A stretch of DNA of 64,000 bases from Tricharina praecox (taxonomy: Eukaryota), in the NCBI RefSeq assembly GCF_024521635.1, contig NW_026250416.1, positions 62,001 to 126,000 on the forward strand. Reading direction: 5' to 3'. The position numbers and the translations under genes are program-made. Numbering within the stretch: position 1 is the first letter of the stretch; each line of letters starts with the position of its first letter. The notes below the pieces were generated by a model. It saw only the letters and a list, made by a program, of their open reading frames with translations. It did not search any database and was not told where the DNA came from. This document shows, one piece after another, positions 20,657-40,511 of the stretch.

Positions 20657-23447
20657 ATGGCGTCTCACTACGCTGCCTCTAAGAGACCCGAGAACGTCGA
20701 AGGCGAGGACGTTGTCGGAGAGAACGCTATCGGCGGGAACGGAGTCGGCGATTCGGAGTCGCTCTCTAGTTCTAACGACCAGAGCGTTGGTTCTTTTGAA
20801 TCCGAGGAAACGATTGTCAAGTCGGACGACACCAGCCAGCCGCAAGCTAGCCTCTCTGTTCGTCGCGGTCACGGCTCTCGACCTATATCCGTAAGTTGTC
20901 CTTCCTTCCTGTTTATCTTCCTGGTTATCCACCATGACAATCGATCGTATGATGGTGAACTCATTGATCATCTGTCCCCAACACATGAGACATGATGTAT
21001 CAATCGTTCCTTTTTGCTTTCGCTCATCTCCAACATTTAAAACATTTGCTGACTACTTGGACCTTACATTGAATGGGACCATGCGCTCCATCATGAGAGA
21101 CATGGCAGTGGCGGATGACATGTCTTCCGTTGTCGCTACTGGAAGAGCGTACTGACTGATCGTTTCTCCTTGACATCCACGATGATCTCGACCAGCTTGT
21201 CGTTCCTAAAGCATGCGGTTTGCATCCAATGCTATTAGCACATAGCTGGTCAGATACACATCAGTCAAGGTAGACTCATCGGTCAACAGCATTCCACTCG
21301 CTCAGTTTTCTAGCCAACGAGACATTAACATCGCTACTGCCTCTCTCTCGTGATGAGCGTGATAAATGTTCCATTCAATGGTTATGGTCCTTCTTGAACA
21401 GGAATATTTGAGTGGATTCAGCAAGGCTGCCATCAAAGACGGCGAAAACTGTGTCAACATTGGTGACTCTTCGGGATCCGGATATAACCGCTTCGAGCAA
21501 CAGAATGAGTACCGTCTTGATCTCCCCCAGCAGACGATGCAGTCTTTTGAAACTATTCTTCCGAGGCTAGATGAATGTAAGTTTTTCCTTTCTCCCCCTC
21601 GGTGGCTGTGGCTCGATCTAACATCTCCAACAGACTTCCATCTGCCCGCTGGTGAACATTTGTTCATCTTGCCAGACGGCGGTGCAATCCACTTTATCGC
21701 TGGAGACAGGCCTCAGGAGTTCTTCGGAAGTGAGGCTTGCGTTGTTCGCAACCACCGGTTCGAGGGCCTCTACTTCCTGAGGACCAACCTCATCATGAAG
21801 ATGGAGGTTCTTCGGCTGATTGCTGGCAACTTTGTTCGCAACGGCTCCGTTGAGAACCGCAACTTCATCTACCTATCGACGCAGGCGCATGTAGGAGAGC
21901 GTGTGGTTGGTATCAACTGCGGCTTGTATGTCGGAGATACCATGGATCCTCTGCCTATCTTCTTCTCGCCTCTGGGACTGGAGATGCACAGCAAGAGCAT
22001 GTTGATGTGCCACTCTCCTTGGGCCACGAACACTATGCGCGAAATAGGTGTCGAGCACAGGCGTCTCGCGGCTCCTCCAATGCTCGCGGCTCCTCCAATG
22101 CCTCAGGGCCCTCCAATGCTCCAGGGCCCTCCAATGCTCCAGGGCCCTCCAATGCTCCAGGGCCCTCCAATGCTCCAGGGCCCTCCAATGCTCCAGGGCC
22201 CTCCAATGCTCACTAGAACCACAAGCGCTGCTTCCGGTTCAAAGTAAGTTGCAGTCATCCGGATCATTCACGACTATTCTTAAGAGTCGAACTAATTCTG
22301 TTCTACAGTGGATTCAATGGAGCGGGTTATGCCAGTCAAGTTCAGATGATGAACAATGCTGGCGCTGCTTCTAGATCAAAGTATGTTGCAGCCGTCCAGA
22401 TCGTTCTCAACTATTCTTAAGAGTCGAACTAATTCTGTTCTATAGTGGAATCAATGGAGCGGGTTATGCCGGTCACGTTCAGGCTATGAACAATGCTGCT
22501 CACGCTCAGGCGATGCACAATGCTGCTCACGTTCAGGCGATGAACAATGCCAGTGCTGGTGCCTCCGAGCCCCATTCGGTGAGTCTCTTCACATACCTTA
22601 GTGGCTCTTCTGTGCCACGGAAACAATGTTGCTTGAGTTATTCCGATGGAATTCTAAATCCTTTCATCAACTTCAATTCTTTCTCGACTAACTGACTGCT
22701 CTCGTATAGATTCTCAAGAGGGAAAACGTATCTGCTCCGGCCACTCCGGCCACCCCTCGGCAGTCCTTCGCATTAGTTGCTCCCAGGACCCCTTCTTCCG
22801 GCAGGAGAGTTATGTTCGAACCGACTACGCCCACTACGCCCACGACCCCAAACACCCCTAGGACTCCGGTTAGGCCTTACACATCGGCTGCCGCGTTCCA
22901 TCCATCCGTTCCCGGTGGAAGTGGTCGCCAGAGTGTTCCTCTTACTCCTCGGCATGCCAATAAGAAGACCAACAATCTCTACAAGACTGAGATGTGCCGC
23001 AACTGGAGTGAGGTTGGAGAGTGCAAGTATGGAAAGTCTTGCCAGTTCGCTCACGGAGCCCAGGAGCTTCGTGTTGTCCAGCGCCATGGCCAGTGGAAAA
23101 CTAAGACTTGCCTGGCATGGGTGAATGGAGGATGCACGTACGGTTCCCGCTGCTGCTACGCTCGTAAGTCCTCGAGGTCTCTCCCCCCATAGTGGCTTAA
23201 ATTTCTAACACATCGATATTTAGATGAGTTCCTTCCCGAGCGGAGGGCTGATACTGCTGCTCAGTCCTACGGTGCCACGACTCGTTGGAGGGAGTCTGGG
23301 GCTTCTGGAGCTCTTGGATTCAGGACTTCCAGGCCTTTGGCCCCGCCGATCCGCAGGATTACCAACACTAACGCTGTTCCTCCCCGTGGTGTCTCTCGCT
23401 TCGCGGACCTTTTCTTGGGTCCCGAGAGTGGAGATGCCACTCGCTAA
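20657..23447 (+). CDS. Tandem CCCH zinc-finger RNA-binding protein (TIS11/tristetraprolin/Cth1-2/Zfs1 family) with unrecognised N-terminal domain, 7 exons
   Basis: LYKTEMC-X8-C-X5-C-X3-H, an 18-residue linker, then WKTKTC-X7-C-X5-C-X3-H (last His split by intron 23164-23223). Introns 20891-21401, 21577-21633, 22244-22308, 22381-22445 and 22579-22709 keep one frame. Stop TAA 23445-23447. Confidence 0.85.
21059..21390 (+). other. Long imperfect rod-like RNA hairpin inside intron 1 of the CCCH gene
   Basis: At least 8 nested complementary blocks with nearly constant coordinate sums. Examples: 21067-79/21368-80, 21089-100/21344-55, 21104-14/21331-41, 21168-74/21264-70, 21190-97/21244-51. Confidence 0.85.
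22071..22211 (+). repeat. Coding 18-bp minisatellite, ~8 units, encoding (A/G)PPML(Q/A)
   Basis: Tandem GGCCCTCCAATGCTCCAG with A-P-P-M-L-A variants at the 5' end. Confidence 0.95.
22225..22497 (+). repeat. 137-bp tandem duplication comprising an intron plus exon
   Basis: Introns 22244-22308 and 22381-22445 are both 65 nt and near-identical. Both are followed by TGGAWTCAATGGAGCGGGTTATGCC. Confidence 0.93.
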
Positions 23448-23840
23448 TCGCGGATCTATGGCGTGGGTGATTCAATTTCGTATCTTGAACTCTCTCTCGG
23501 GAGAGTATAAGCTGACGACGTTCTAATCACCTACCCCCCAAAAAAAGAGACGGGAATATACCTAATCCCATATATCCTAGTCTCAACTTTCCTTTCCTGC
23601 CCCCTTTCCCCTTTGCCCTTTTCCCTTCCCGTGCCCCTTCCCCCTTCCCCCTAAAATTCGATCTGTCCTTCTTGGCATTTCTTTTCCGATGCCCTCTACG
23701 ACATCTCCTTTCTGATTTCACATAGCTCTAGTAAACATTGGGGATTTTACATGTTTTCTGTTTTTTTTCTTCTCATTTGTCTGATGGTTTCCTCCCGAAG
23801 GACCATTGTTGTGATGTTTTGTTCTGTTTTTTTTTCTTTT

Positions 23841-24130
23841 CGTTCTTCATATGTCCGGATATCCGAGGCTCTTTCTGCCTCTATTGTGTCGGAGTGCTCG
23901 GCGGAGCTCTGCCGAAATATCGGTGGACTTCGAAGACTTCACCGACAGGATGTCTGGACATGGGAGGATGAGTATGGTGTTATGTTTTTTTTCTCTGTTT
24001 TTGTTTTCATGCTTCCTATGTCCGGATCTTGTAGGCTCTCAGCCTCTATTCTGTCGGAGCGGAGCTCTGACGAAATCTCGGTGGACTGGGGAGATTTCAC
24101 CGACAGGATGTCCGGATACGGGAAGATGAA
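23841..24130 (+). ncRNA. Two diverged copies (23841-23970, 24006-24130) of a structured RNA motif, probably in the CCCH gene 3' UTR
   Basis: Each copy has a ~23-bp closing stem enclosing three hairpins. Sequences differ but pairing is kept. Copies are flanked by U-rich linkers. Whether it is cis-acting or an independent RNA is unknown. Confidence 0.6.
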
Positions 24131-24724
24131 CTTTACGGTGTTATGTTTATTTGGGAGGATGGTCTGCAGCATTTTTACGGGGATATCATGGCTTGTTTGC
24201 GTTTGCGTTGATCTTGTTAGGTTACATATGCTGTTATGTCACTGAAATGTGACTTGGGGGATTGTCTGCTTGACATATGCTTTTTTCTTTTTTCTTTCTG
24301 TACTGGGATTTCTTTGCGTTGATGACTGACATACTGAGATGATGATGAATAACGGACAAATGGTGAATGGCGGATGAATGATGGGTTGGTAACCTCACTA
24401 TCCGGTACCAAACGTGAAGTGGTAGATATGGTGATGTAACCGTGATTTGGGGGCAGACTGGCCAGTGTTGCGTATACTGTTTAGCTGGCCAGTTTGGGAT
24501 TCGAAAATGCACAGCAATGAGTGTAGGTAAGTGCTATCTGTAGGTGTATGTGATACTGTGGACAGGTAAATTCCAACTCTGATGCAGTAACTCAGTATAG
24601 GTATCATAAGTACATAGACGACACTCCTCGGAATAAAACATTGGAGCTGTAGACACAACATCGCTCGACCGTCAAAGTTGCTCCATCAGTCCACCCAACC
24701 AACCAAATTCCCCACCAAATCTAT

Positions 24725-25893
24725 CTACCACAGTTCCTTATCGTCCCATGGATATCGATCATCTCCCAGCTCAGCACAGGTCAAATGCTGAAAATTCAAT
24801 CCCTTCCCAAGCACGAGATTGTTCTTGAGCAGCGGGGCAACGATGCCCTGCACCTTCTCCGGAATCCTCGCCAAAAACGCATGCAACCCGCCCGCCCTCT
24901 CAGGAAACCTGGCATCCATTCCTGCCTGTATCTCCTCCTCCTCCTCATTCATCACCCACGTCGTCGGGCTGCTGATTTGCCGGTACATCACTCCCTCTCT
25001 CGTGCTCCCGCTATTTCCCGGGTCAGTGAAGGATCTTCGGAGAATCCGGTGGATAACCGGATATGCCATCGAATACTCCTCCGAGCCCGCCGTGAGCCGG
25101 TCTATCTCACTGGAGGCAGCCGAAATCATCTCGCCGATGCGGTTGTACTCCTCTTCTGCCAGAACCGTGATGCTCTCCGGCAAGTCCAGATCCCGCACCT
25201 CTCTATAAACCTTCCACCTCCCCACAAGATGTATAAACGAGTCTTTAAACAACTTCTTGCTGCGGATCTTCGTCGCGAGATTCAAGAACTCCAGCGCTCT
25301 GTGCGCCAGCGCCTGCGCGATGTCCGGGGACGAAAGCAGCTTGTGCTCGATCTGCGCGGCAACGACGGAACGACTGCAGTACAGATCTGCGACTTCTAGC
25401 AGGCTCTCGCATTCGCTGTCGGTTTGGTAGCCGGTAATCGGCGCATGGTAGATTATCCGGAAGAGACTATCGTAGGACCGCGCCATCTCGGTTTCGGCGT
25501 CTACACGGTCGAGGTAGGCTTTCTCCTCATCGTTGGGCGGTGGCGGCATCCCCGGTGCTGAAGGGAGGACCTCGTTTAACACCACCTTGAGTGGTATCAG
25601 TCACTGGTGTTCCCGCGTCTTCCGTCTTCTGGAGAGCTTACATCCGGCCCCACCGGCACTAGCATCAAGTCGCCACTCTCATCTCGGCACAAGCCATACC
25701 GGTAACTTATCGACGTCGGCCCGGAGATTGTATTTTCGGGCTTCCACCAATTCTCGGACAGACTGCCGTCGAAGAACCCGGAGAACAAGCGCAGCACGGC
25801 GCTGTGGAGGTGGTACCGTTGGCCGAAGATTATGATCTCGACATCAGCCGGGAGATTGCTCTTGGATAGCAAGATCGTGGTTTTTGCGGACAT
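24725..25893 (-). CDS. BTB/POZ-domain protein, 2 exons
   Basis: ADVEIIIFGQRYHLHSAVLRLFSGFFDGSLS is a fungal BTB N-terminal motif; LLEVADLYCS and LATKIRSKKLFKDSFIHLVG follow. Intron ~25586-25641 (GTAAGC...CTGAT...AAG). Confidence 0.85.
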
Positions 25894-37286: not shown

Positions 37287-40200
37287 CTACACATCCACCC
37301 ACTCCACAACCGTCTCCGCCCCAGCCCCCCTACTACTCTCCGCGACCCTGAGCGTATACCCGCCCCACCGTGCATCCTTATCGACCGGCAGCCTCCAGGA
37401 ATTTTCGTTCTCGTCCCAATAACTCAGATCTCTCCTGGTGAGATCGAACGTTGCCACTTCCGTGCCATTCACGCCGACCGCGACCTTCTCGAACCCTCGC
37501 AGCACACGCGGAGGAAACGTTTCGGCCGTGGCCGCATTGGCAGGGAAGCTGATGTATAGCTGGGCTACGGATTTTCCGGCGACGGAGCCGGTGTTCCGGA
37601 TTCGGGCAGTGACCCGCAGTAGGGGCTCGTAGAGCGTGCTTTGCGAGACCTTTGCGCGGGGGCGTGGCGTTGTCGAGTAGCTGGCTGGGTATGGGTACGG
37701 GCCGCTGCCGACGCTGGCAGAGGACAGCCACGGGTAGATGTACTTCTGGATTCGGCGGAGGCCCTGCGGGAATACTAGATCCTGGGGGTCCGGCAGGGTG
37801 GAGTTGAGCGTGATCCGGGTGGTGGTGTTGGCCGAGTCCGTCCGTTCCGCCGGGAACTCCCCCGGGCTCTCCACCAGCGTTTCCACGGTGACGTCGGAAA
37901 TGTTGAAGGTCGTGTACCCGAGCCCGAACCCGAACTCGAAGCGCGGGGTGATGTTGTATGCGTCGAAGTGCCGGTAGTCGGTATACACCCCGTCTGTAAA
38001 GTCCTGCTGCGGGATCCGGTGGTTGGGTGTGTACAGGACCTGCGCCGCCGGGCCATAGTCTTCGAGTGATTTCGCAATCGTGTAGGGCAGCCGACCGGAG
38101 GGGTTAACGTCGCCCCAAAGGACATCGACCAGCGAGCTCCCGGCTTCCTGCCCGGGGAGGTGCGCGAGAAGTACGGCGGTAACGTTCGGGTGCTCAATCC
38201 ACGCCTCCATGTCGACTGCGCCGACGGAGTGAATGATCACGATGGTGTCCTTGCACGCACTTGCCACTGAGCGAACGAGCTTGTCTCCGTTATGCCAGAG
38301 CTTGAGATCGTTGCGGTCGCCCTTGTGGCCCTCGACGGACAGGTAGCCTTCGCCGCTGTCAGAGCTGACGAAGACCATGCAAGTGCTGTTGGGGGTTTTT
38401 GAGGCCATGGGCAAGATCAGGTTGTAGTCGTCGTCTGATTGGACGTATTCGAGCATGGTGCGGTCCGACTCTGCACGGCTAGAGATGGCGGATAAGGGAC
38501 TGCTGAAGGTTGAGTAGTCGACGCTACCGGATCCCCAGCCCTGGCCTGAATCAACTCAATCAGCATCACATTCCCACCCCTCGTATCGAAAGTATAGCTT
38601 ACCAAGAGTGCCGATGTTGCACCCACGATCGCCGCACGAATTCATTCCCATTGGATTCCCAGCGGCCCCACTCCCAAAGACCACAATAGCCTTCCTCGCA
38701 TCCTTCCCAGTTCCAAACGGCAGCGTAGCATCACCATTCTTCAACAGCACCATCCCCTCTGCCGCAATCTCCCTGACGAGTTCATGATGCTCCTCTCTGA
38801 CATCAGCATACTGATTCCTCCCCTCTAGCTCCTTCTTCCCTTCATCATCAGTACCAAAATATCGTGGCCCCTGGGGGGTCCGGAACCAGCTCGAGAAGTT
38901 GGGAGCCGTGTAGTTGGTGTCCTGGCCCATCTGATACCAGGTTGCAACAATGCGGAGCGCCATGTCATCGAGGCGTTCTAGTGGGACACTGCCATTCAGA
39001 ACGGCACGGGTTAAAGAGGAGCCAAGAAAGGGTGCGCCGTCGGAGAAGGAGTCCCCGTCGCCCGGCATGGACATGTCGCTGAGTCCCGTCAGTACTAACA
39101 ATGATGGAGAGAGGGAAGGGAACCCACAGGCCGGCAAGAACACTGGCCACGCCGCTGCGTTGAGCGATCCAGTCGCTCACGACAAATCCCTGGAACTCGA
39201 ATTCTTCCTTCAAGACTCCATTGAGCAGATAGCTATTCTGGCAGCCATACGAGTTATTGATCTCGACCACGCAGTCAGCACCGCACGAATGACGCCCAAC
39301 CGACCGGAAGAACCCACCTGATTATACGAGCACATAACACTCCCCACACCCTCCCTTACCGCATCCTGAAACGGCCAAGCATAAATCTCCCTCAACGCCC
39401 TGCCGCCCACATTCGCACTCAACGCCTCGATCAACGGCCAGCCCTGGGCCCTGCCCTCCGCCGCCTGCCGAAAAGTCTCCTGTTCATTCGCCAAAAAATG
39501 TTTAACGCAAGCGACGACGCCCTCTCCCTGGACACCCCTAACGGTCCGTCCCACCGCCTGCCCCGCCAAATACGGATCACTCCCGAACCCCTCCCACCCC
39601 CTCCCCCCAGCCGGAAACTTCCCGCCGACCACACTCGGCCCAAGCATGACATTAACGCCCTTGGCGCGCATCTCCCTCCCCAGCGCCTTCCCCCGCCGCT
39701 GCATCAGTTCGCGATCCCACGTCCCCGCCACCGTGACCCCCGCCGGAAACACCGTGACCGCGTCCGCAAACCTCACACCCATCGGTCCGTCCTGCAAACA
39801 CAACGCGGGAAACCCCCCGGCCTGGCCGGTATTCCCCACACAAGCCCCCATCCGCCACCCCGTGCCGGTGGTGATATTAACCTTCTCTGCCAACGACATT
39901 CCGCCCACGAGCCTAGCAGCCTTCTGATACGCAGCGCTCCAGTTCCCCGCGCCGCTGCCGCGCGGCGCCGGGTACACGCGCGGCGAGGGTCGCGAGCGGG
40001 AGGGAGTACGTGCTCCGCCAGCCGGGCGGCCCGCTCGCTTCCGTGTGCTTTTTCAGTCCTAGGCCGAGCCCGAGCCCGAGCCCGAGGAGGACGAGGATGC
40101 AGAGCACTCCGCCGACGGCATAGCGCTTGCAGCTGCGGGCTGTACGCCAGAACCCGCCCCCGCCGCCGCCGGAGCCGCGGAGGGATGTGCCCGGCGAGGA

Positions 40201-40511
40201 GGTGTTCAGCCGCGACTTGGGCGTGGGGGAGGGGATGAGGACGTTCGTGGGGGTGTCGGTGTAGGAGGGGAGGAGGGCTGTTGACGCCACTGCGGCGGTT
40301 GATGGCTGTAATATGTTGATAGAAGTCGCGGTTTCACGGCATGAACGTAGCGTTGCGCGCAGGGTGACAGCTGTTGTGGTATGTATGAATTGTGTGAATT
40401 TCACGCGGTTGAGATATCTACCTGCCGTTGTTGTTGACGGTGACGCGCCGGGCGGACGAGTTCGCTGCGTTGCGGAGCAACGGTGTTACACAATGGCCCG
40501 TGTCTACACAT
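37287..40511 (-). CDS. GH3 beta-glucosidase with N-terminal membrane anchor (BglE-like); apparent +1 frameshift at 39987-39989; start uncertain
   Basis: LCLQDGPMGVRFAD, GRGWEGFGSDPYL, CVKHFLANEQE, VMCSYNQ, FVVSDW (nucleophile Asp), SDSGEGY, PSGRLPYTI, YTDYRHFD. The TM segment VGGVLCILVLLGLGLGLGLGL is out of frame with the catalytic domain by one base. Confidence 0.85.

Follow-up and report, generated by a model that had tools for sequence, protein, structure and literature searches.

A tandemly duplicated, stably folding RNA element downstream of a CCCH zinc-finger gene in Tricharina praecox

Two adjacent copies of a sequence that is predicted to fold into a branched RNA structure lie within a 64,000-nucleotide (nt) stretch of contig NW_026250416.1 of Tricharina praecox (hereafter the window, meaning the whole of the DNA that was analysed), which looks like an ascomycete-type fungal chromosome segment. 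The copies, which we refer to together as the element, are found on the + strand at 23841-23970 (copy 1) and 24006-24130 (copy 2), 400-680 nt downstream of the stop codon of a gene for a tandem CCCH zinc-finger protein. The question that this locus raises is whether the structure is a working part of the messenger RNA (mRNA) of that gene or an accident of recent duplication. A sequence-only reading of the window had described the copies as a duplicated four-way junction with conserved pairing, and had proposed that they form either a cis-regulatory element of the 3' untranslated region (3'UTR) or a small ribozyme or other non-coding RNA (ncRNA). All of the sequence strings quoted in that reading were found where it had placed them, and both the duplication and its location downstream of the CCCH gene were borne out. 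As set out below, we regard the element as a candidate for a young, local regulator and not as a new widespread class of RNA, because its relatives keep only the long closing stem.

Folding and divergence of the two copies

When folded as + strand RNA, copy 1 reached -67.3 kcal/mol, compared with -40.4 +/- 3.5 kcal/mol for shuffled sequences (z -7.6), and copy 2 reached -57.1 kcal/mol (z -4.45); for each copy, none of 200 shuffles was as good. On the - strand the corresponding energies were -44.7 kcal/mol (copy 1) and -43.9 kcal/mol (copy 2), with a z of -3.8 each. In a + strand energy scan of the whole window, copy 1 ranked second among 3194 segments of 130 nt. The other segments of extreme energy cluster in regions of 64-72% GC, and two of these, when refolded, gave z values of -0.34 and -2.4, which are explained by that GC content. 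The structure of the copies is thus real and goes far beyond chance.

Each copy is closed by a long stem, P1. In copy 1, P1 pairs 23841-23864 with 23948-23970 over 23 base pairs (bp), in runs of 8 and 15 bp with one bulged A; 6 of the 23 positions are non-Watson-Crick, all of them G-U pairs on the + strand, and A-C juxtapositions number zero. In copy 2, P1 pairs 24007-24032 with 24103-24129 over 24 bp in four segments (4 + 6 + 8 + 6). Inside P1 the folds place three shorter + strand stems, namely P2 (23865-23869/23877-23881 in copy 1 and 24033-24037/24041-24045 in copy 2), P3 (about 23885-23915 in the four-way model of copy 1 and 24053-24060/24064-24071 in copy 2) and P4 (23920-23927/23938-23945 in the four-way model of copy 1 and 24079-24085/24096-24102 in copy 2). 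Of the 42 pairs of the two-copy consensus, 8 are G-U in copy 1 and 6 in copy 2; the sequence-only reading had noted many such pairs on the + strand.

The four-way junction can be formed by both copies, but it is the predicted optimum in copy 2 only, where the pair probability is about 1.0 for P3 and about 0.9 for P4. In copy 1 the junction is 3.2 kcal/mol worse than the optimum (-64.1 versus -67.3 kcal/mol), and the pair probabilities of P3 and P4 are at most 0.01. The predicted optimum of copy 1 instead pairs 23887-23892 with 23942-23947 (UGUCGG with CCGACA) and 23908-23915 with 23920-23927 (UCUGCCGA with UCGGUGGA), thereby cross-pairing the 5' half of P3 with the 3' half of P4. What allows this cross-pairing is the resemblance between P3 and P4, and the two together suggest that the interior of the element arose by duplication of one hairpin within the unit. 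Arms of neighbouring units can also pair with each other.

The copies belong to a tandem unit of ~160 nt in the order linker-element-linker-element-linker, and their starts are spaced 158-167 nt apart. The first U-rich linker, upstream of copy 1, lies at 23815-23840 (direct-repeat families D4, D6 and D7); the second, which contains GGTGTTATGTTTTTTTT, lies at 23971-24005 (alignment and direct repeats); and the third, CTTTACGGTGTTATGTTTATTT, lies at 24131-24152 (direct repeats and the alignment of relatives), all on the + strand. With the U-rich linkers counted in, the mean column identity of the copies is 87-88%. The segments CTATT and CGAAAT, which had been singled out as parts of the junction that were kept, are invariant between the copies. 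In all, the copies are separated by 20 substitutions, of which 9 are transitions, and by a 2-nt and a 7-nt indel. Note that Tandem Repeats Finder returned short-period rows only, the ~160-nt duplication being absent from its output, and that an inverted-repeat search reported 0 pairs because the G-U-rich arms break exact seeds. Within the window the two adjacent copies are the only ones. A degenerate pattern for the 3' half of the element (CGAAANNYCGGYGGRN{6,20}YYCRCCGRCAGGRTRTC) matched both copies in the 64-kb window, and the same 26-base pattern gave 0 matches in metagenome contigs.

Do the differences between the copies respect the fold? We placed the same substitution spectrum at random on one copy and compared the resulting folding energies with that of the real other copy. 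When copy 1 was mutated towards copy 2, random placement gave -42.6 +/- 4.9 kcal/mol versus -57.1 kcal/mol for the real sequence (3 of 600 as low); when copy 2 was mutated towards copy 1, it gave -45.1 +/- 4.8 kcal/mol versus -70.2 kcal/mol (0 of 600 as low). Re-placing only the 11 substitutions of P1 within P1 gave -45.0 +/- 4.1 versus -57.1 kcal/mol from copy 1 to copy 2 (10 of 800) and -52.3 +/- 3.8 versus -70.2 kcal/mol from copy 2 to copy 1 (0 of 800). Among the 42 consensus pairs, six differ by a one-sided change between G-U and Watson-Crick pairing and none by a two-sided change, and the pairing in P1 accommodates further differences by shifting register (the bulged A of copy 1, for instance, corresponds to a paired C in copy 2). 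Substituted columns make up 0 of 44 in the stems P2-P4 versus 14 of 41 among unpaired columns, a count that is partly circular because a two-copy consensus drops pairs that one copy cannot form. Taken together, the random-placement tests, the one-sided changes, the register shifts and the confinement of P1 mismatches to G-U pairs argue that pairing in the + strand RNA has been preserved since the duplication. The earlier statement that pairing is kept despite divergence therefore stands; the term "conserved pairing" is too strong for what are two paralogous copies with one-sided changes and no compensatory ones.

Gene, transcript cover and relatives of the element

The zinc-finger exon of the upstream gene (22899-23163, + strand; from the list of open reading frames (ORFs) and a Pfam zf-CCCH match with an E of 1.5e-12) lies in an open frame of 22710-23163. 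It holds the whole of finger 1 (C-x8-C-x5-C-x3-H) and most of finger 2 (C-x7-C-x5-C-x3-H), the last His codon of which is split by an intron (C, then AT), and the product is thus a tandem CCCH domain encoded on the + strand. The lead-ins YKTEMC and WKTKTC are, we presume from reading them and not from any tool, of the TTP/Zfs1/Cth2 type. The intron, of 60 nt and with GT..AG ends, occupies 23164-23223, and the last coding exon (23224-23447, from the sequence and the ORF list) ends in a TAA at 23445-23447. Directly after the stop lies a conserved block (23455-23547) that, at 77-78% identity to the related loci L001-L003 described below, is the best-conserved part of the 3'UTR; in L002 and L003 a TAA likewise stands just ahead of this block.

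Of five sequencing runs listed, X1 and X2 cover the region in part (shares 0.43 and 0.34); for runs X3 and X4 no contigs were placed on the region. One X1 contig has the 60-nt intron removed, joining 23163 to 23224, and for this reason we can say that run X1 contains processed RNA of the CCCH gene. The X1 contigs have a depth of 4.9-7.0 over the coding part and of 2.3-3.5 over the region of the element (23786-23936, 23961-24180 and 24167-24328), and X2 contigs cover 23449-23599, 23861-24078 and 24055-24300 at a depth of 2.4-3.3. Contig cover is absent from 23463-23785 in X1, from the coding part in X2 and from 24329-24570 in both; these gaps carry no meaning, and where contigs stop, at 24300 and 24328, they do not mark the ends of transcripts. 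From the X1 and X2 contigs we infer, as regards both its extent and its continuity, a 3'UTR of about 0.88 kb on the + strand (23448-24328). A location of the element in this 3'UTR is plausible because the element follows the stop codon and because X1 holds both the contigs over the element and the spliced gene.

The X1 and X2 contigs over the element contain no variant letters, and at a depth of 2-5 they are uninformative on RNA editing. At 24279 the window has a G where the sole covering X1 contig (depth 3.5) has an A, most likely a strain difference. One X2 contig of 285 nt matches only 23754-23777 and 23983-24005, that is, pieces of 23-24 nt from the U-rich linkers, and its loose ends are unrelated; it is probably another transcript with a similar T-rich stretch.

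A search of metagenome contigs with the zinc-finger exon yielded 84 relatives, of which 80 were kept. The 14 close loci (73-98% identity) represent about nine species and, by their downstream DNA, fall into four groups: group A (the window, L001/L002 and L003), group B (L004-L006), group C (L007, L008 and L009/L010/L011/L014) and group D (L012 and L013). Sequence of the 3'UTR is common to the window and group A only. L001/L002 and L003 each carry one weakly similar unit at the same position as the element, for which nhmmer gave an E of 0.011 over nearly the whole unit (L001/L002) and of 8.8e-5 over the 3' part (L003). A covariance model, R1, was built from the two copies, as the sequence-only reading had advised, and with default filters it found the window's own copies only in 264,181 bases of related loci. 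With filters off, in L001 and L003 (14,257 bases), it gave 24 matches with an E of up to 10; the counterpart was the best match in L001 (10.5 bits, E 0.11), and in L003 it was the best of the three matches listed for that locus and the fifth of the 24 (6.4 bits, E 1.7).

What these relatives share with the element is the closing stem. In L002 the stem comprises UUCCU/GGGAA, a matched insertion GUUG/CGAC and a core UGUUCAGAU/AUCUGAAUA, making up 5 + 4 + 9 + 2 bp with internal loops, and the core differs from UCCGGA/UCCGGA in the window by two two-sided changes (C-G to U-A and G-C to A-U). In L003 the stem can be formed by UUCCCAU/AUGGGAG and, at a cost of 2.8 kcal/mol and with three G-U pairs, also by UUUGGG/UCCGGA. 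The best-conserved sequence of the element among the relatives is the 3' arm with the GUUANGUU core just after it, and the GTTANGTT core that immediately follows P1 is found again in L003 (GTTAGGTT) and L002 (GTTAAGTT). An alignment of the four sequences with MAFFT, followed by RNAalifold, gave a weak consensus of -9.1 kcal/mol in which 13 P1 pairs are kept with one-sided changes only; note that MAFFT appears to misplace the 3' arm of L002. The interiors differ, that of L002 being a rod-like hairpin and that of L003 a three-way arrangement of a short hairpin and a long one. In the covariance-model alignments the L001 and L003 counterparts have the P2 and P4 arms deleted, and by alignment and folds alike counterparts of P2-P4 are absent from L002 and L003. 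The four-way junction is therefore specific to one species, which leaves of the original claim that the junction can be formed by both copies and is optimal in copy 2; and we rejected the element as a conserved four-way-junction family, since P1-P4 are not kept together in homologues and covariation does not go beyond two P1 pairs in L002.

Two observations on the related loci may be added. In groups B-D the sole low-energy segment 3' of the gene was found in L011, about 841-1010 nt downstream of the protein match; we rejected it as a counterpart, as it consists of a G-run paired with C-rich sequence and is not common to L007 or L008. In L003, at 985-1030, the 5' arm of the counterpart occurs twice in tandem (ATTTCCCATGTG... 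and ACTTTTATGTG...), a sign of local slippage.

The element is not a widespread RNA family, and it did not match a known one. In agreement with the view that it is no recognisable transfer RNA (tRNA), small nucleolar RNA (snoRNA) or canonical hammerhead, Rfam gave 0 matches at gathering thresholds in the whole 64-kb window, and ARAGORN found 0 genes there, which also disposes of a tRNA-like cloverleaf of the short interspersed element (SINE) kind. In E-value mode, Rfam gave 11 matches in 23400-24600, none of which reached the gathering threshold. Three of them overlap the element; these are to plant or animal microRNA (miRNA)-precursor models (13.5-17.4 bits versus gathering thresholds of 55-90, E 3-10), and they span from the 3' arm of copy 1 to the 5' arm of copy 2 because arms of neighbouring units can pair. 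A snoRNA was rejected, as the sole C/D-like sub-threshold matches fall outside the element, at 24315-24398. The open frame at 23655-24245 (196 codons) was rejected as coding sequence, as the two copies are read in different phases because of the 2-nt and 7-nt indels.

Possible roles of the closing stem

The reading that we favour, tentatively, is that the element is a lineage-restricted, cis-acting double-stranded RNA (dsRNA) platform in the 3'UTR, recognised by an enzyme of the RNase III type or by some other factor that binds dsRNA. The ancestor of the element would have been a single stem-loop, at the same site, that grew by nested tandem duplication, in which first the apical hairpin was duplicated (to give P3 and P4) and then the whole ~160-nt unit with its U-rich linker. 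The long, bulged, G-U-rich closing duplex (P1, 20-24 bp) and its 3' flank would have been kept, and the apical part would have been free to vary. The module may then act in cis on the mRNA as a dsRNA platform, its most likely reader being a dsRNA-recognising factor such as a nuclear RNase III of the Pac1/Rnt1 type or Dicer, by analogy with the systems described below; such a reader would tune the level or the 3'-end fate of the transcript, with the two units offering it two sites. The retention of a long bulged stem in three species, the fold-preserving divergence of the copies and the + strand G-U bias suggest that the duplex is the functional part of the module, and would imply that selection acts on the RNA of the element.

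We favour a dsRNA platform because P1 fits the requirement reported for Pac1 of fission yeast and because Pac1 hairpins in mRNAs likewise keep their structure. Pac1 reportedly requires a dsRNA stem of at least 20 nt and tolerates bulges and any apical loop, and in orthologues of mfs2 the structure of the Pac1 hairpin is kept and its sequence drifts (PMC8421224); targets of Rnt1 in mRNAs have also been reported (PMC13183374, PMC4334505). P1 of both copies has such a stem, and that of L002 is borderline. Like the element, the mRNA targets of Pac1 and Rnt1 contain, inside a protein-coding transcript, a long duplex (20 nt or more) that tolerates bulges and has a variable apex, and the mfs2 hairpin resembles the element in keeping its structure in close relatives while its sequence drifts. 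However, the mfs2 hairpin is a simple stem-loop of 37 nt at the start of the ORF, whereas the element is a branched module of 125-130 nt that is present twice, in the 3'UTR; and Pac1 targets are known by their cleavage, whereas the element is known from sequence alone. Rnt1 substrates carry an AGNN tetraloop, which is absent from the element, where the predicted loops are UCUUUCU and CUC (P2), GGCG and GGA (P3) and AAUA or the CUUCGAAGAC type (P4). In the Staufen-binding site of ARF1 mRNA, and in hairpins resembling primary miRNAs (pri-miRNAs) with branched terminal loops, it is the duplex that is recognised and not the apex. These too have a stem of ~19-24 bp that closes a structured apex of ~100 nt in a 3'UTR or precursor, but they have a shown pathway or product, whereas the element is likened to them by predicted shape alone.

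Structured RNAs have been derived from fungal sequences before, with rps0 and rps20 as candidate structured 3'UTR motifs of fungi (Li and Breaker 2017, PMC5640933) and a set of 17 conserved structural RNAs (Gao, Jones and Rivas 2021, PMC8216456). The fungal 3'UTR motifs, like the element, are sequence-derived structured RNAs in the 3'UTR of a gene with an RNA-binding product. They differ in having many representatives, in 13-25 species, with covariation, whereas the element is known from two paralogous copies in a single species, with one weak counterpart each in two more. The main texts of these two reports, to which the comparison was confined, contain no CCCH- or zinc-finger-associated, four-way or tandem motif. 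The element would be a narrowly distributed case of the long-stem cis elements known from mRNAs.

A number of points weigh against the dsRNA platform. The coding sequence (CDS) and the element lie on separate contigs, with none bridging them, the contigs show neither strand nor ends, and neither X1 nor X2 is on record as RNA; because of this, membership of the element in the mRNA is something that we infer. Of the proposal of a cis-regulatory 3'UTR element there remains, accordingly, a real, strand-specific and stable structure after the stop codon in X1 contigs, and what is missing is a contig that joins it to the CDS. The nhmmer and covariance-model matches to the counterparts are weak, and the counterparts themselves fold no better than shuffled sequences do (z -1.21 in L003, with 22 of 200 shuffles as good, and z -1.73 in L002, with 13 of 200). 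The MAFFT and RNAalifold analysis of four sequences gave 0 two-sided changes in P1, and the covariation in P1 amounts to two pairs in one species, in an alignment made by eye from folds. In about six further species (groups B-D, L004-L014), none of blastn, nhmmer, the covariance model and sliding-window energy revealed a counterpart. A lack of covariation among homologues, which the sequence-only reading had named as grounds for refuting its motif, is largely what is seen for the four-way junction. Finally, tandem duplications of comparable age occur elsewhere in this gene (137 nt twice at 88% identity, and an 18-nt array), and the duplication seen here therefore needs no function.

The main rival, only somewhat less probable, is that the element is a neutral by-product of a slippage-prone, fast-evolving UTR, in which the inner hairpin and then the whole unit were duplicated and the stable fold is a recent accident. 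Complementarity may in that case be kept by processes at the level of DNA, such as intra-strand template switching, which is a way in which hairpins are created and maintained. Besides the similarly diverged duplications in the same gene, this account draws on the absence of the four-way junction from the nearest relatives, on the failure of their counterparts to fold better than shuffles, on the lack of anything comparable in groups B-D, on the two tandem versions of the 5' arm in L003, and on the duplicate-like, cross-pairing P3 and P4. What speaks for the dsRNA platform over a neutral origin is that the substitutions since the duplication keep the fold far better than random placement does, also in P1 alone; that the P1 mismatches of copy 1 are all G-U pairs on the + strand, which a DNA-level process would not favour; and that the + strand is far stabler than the - strand relative to shuffles.

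The remaining explanations give the RNA a different kind of role. A 23-24-bp P1 is of about the length of a Dicer product and the units are modular with conserved linkers, features that would suit a precursor of small RNAs (a hairpin like those of the miRNA-like RNAs, milRNAs) or a separately processed ncRNA, in which the ~125-nt unit is excised or the 23-bp stem diced and which is not a working part of the mRNA. We consider this unlikely: the very weak miRNA-precursor matches in Rfam that could be cited for it score far under threshold, no extended complementary target for the element was found elsewhere in the 64-kb window (the longest matches being 14-nt T-runs), and a promoter or terminator belonging to the units was not identified. 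Autoregulation has precedents in ribosomal proteins that act back on their mRNAs, and in TTP and Cth2, which feed back through their own 3'UTRs. The encoded zinc-finger protein might bind its own 3'UTR at the U-rich linkers (GUUAUGUUU), with the stems presenting the sites, and both the tandem CCCH RNA-binding domain of the product and the recurrence, throughout the three species of the clade, of the GUUANGUU core that follows P1 on its 3' side would be in keeping with this. It seems to us highly improbable nonetheless, given that the domain of the TTP family binds single-stranded AU-rich sites and not helices, that UAUUUAU, UUAUUUA and AUUUA (TATTTAT, TTATTTA and ATTTA in the DNA) occur 0 times in 23448-24600, and that UAUG is not clearly enriched (11 in 1153 nt versus about 7, as estimated by hand from base composition). 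For the fungal rps0 motif, which lies in a 3'UTR beside an RNA-binding-protein gene, a role as a feedback site has been proposed (PMC5640933). The same counts led us to reject the element as an AU-rich element (ARE): AREs such as those bound by Zfs1 (PMC6340701) are, like the element, cis elements of the 3'UTR linked to the TTP/Zfs1/Cth2 family to which the upstream gene is also referred, but they are short, single-stranded sites of the UAUUUAU type, whereas the element is a large folded module.

Least credible in our view is a mobile or catalytic RNA, that is, a foldback transposon or miniature inverted-repeat transposable element (MITE), or a new self-cleaving ribozyme or ligand-binding four-way junction. 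The likeness is superficial and lies in the terminal inverted repeats that the P1 arms of both copies amount to, as in a MITE or foldback transposon, and in the compact multi-helix junction. No dispersed copies were found in the 64 kb, none in the 264 kb of related loci and, by the degenerate pattern, none in the metagenome contigs; and a homologous single unit is present at the same site in L001/L002 and L003, so that these relatives do not lack the insertion and a recent insertion is excluded. As for catalysis, the Rfam searches matched no ribozyme, riboswitch or tRNA-like RNA, relatives keep neither the junction nor P2-P4, and we found nothing in support of the small ribozyme that had been suggested.

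If the duplex of the favoured dsRNA platform is functional, the element would be a dated, lineage-specific, structured 3'UTR regulator that was derived from a simple stem-loop by tandem duplication, and one that sits in the mRNA of a regulator of mRNA decay. A more elaborate form of this reading, which we regard as doubtful, is that of a young RNA device under selection, in which two dsRNA platforms, with interiors that switch between the four-way and the cross-paired form and with arms that pair between units, control a TTP-family mRNA via a reader of the RNase III or Dicer type. Were this true, the locus would have caught in the act the origin of a structured cis-regulatory RNA by nested hairpin duplication. 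Lineage-specific 3'UTR regulators with a history of this sort have, to our knowledge, seldom been documented in filamentous fungi, for which few cis-acting RNA structures are on record. If the element is instead neutral, it serves as a warning that a z of -7.6, G-U-rich pairing and two "conserved" copies can come from a recent palindrome-like duplication, and that paralogous copies in one genome are no substitute for covariation among species.

Neighbouring features

The block that follows the stop codon (23455-23547) contains a small hairpin, CUCUC-UCGG-GAGAG, at which L002 and L003 have a different sequence in which pairing is, by eye, still possible. Between the stop codon and the element, 23588-23652 is a pyrimidine-only, low-complexity tract of the CCCTTT type, at which the X1 and X2 contigs both break. 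Just past the last contig cover of the 3'UTR, the sub-threshold matches to C/D-box snoRNAs at 24315-24398 have UGAUGA and CUGA-like boxes (snoZ188, 24.4 bits versus a gathering threshold of 50, E 0.03; sR14, E 0.016).

The intergenic region is bounded by a convergent neighbour gene on the - strand (24571-25600, from an open frame at 24725-25600 and the X1 and X2 contigs), which is covered from 24571 in X1 (depth 301) and from 24577 in X2 (depth 932). Its protein (24725-25600) matched no Pfam family, and its look-alike clusters are mostly from Ascomycota (score 0.97), which is a lead and not proof.

The other tandem duplications of the CCCH gene region lie in or just upstream of its 5' part. 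They consist of an 18-nt array of about 7-9 copies at 22047-22226, which reads as PPMLQG repeats in one frame, and of a 137-nt unit present twice, at 88% identity, at 22225-22498, the divergence of which is similar to that of the duplication in the 3'UTR. Elsewhere, the lowest raw folding energies of the window fall at 39500-40250, where the GC content is 68-72% and the z is -0.34 at 39941-40070.

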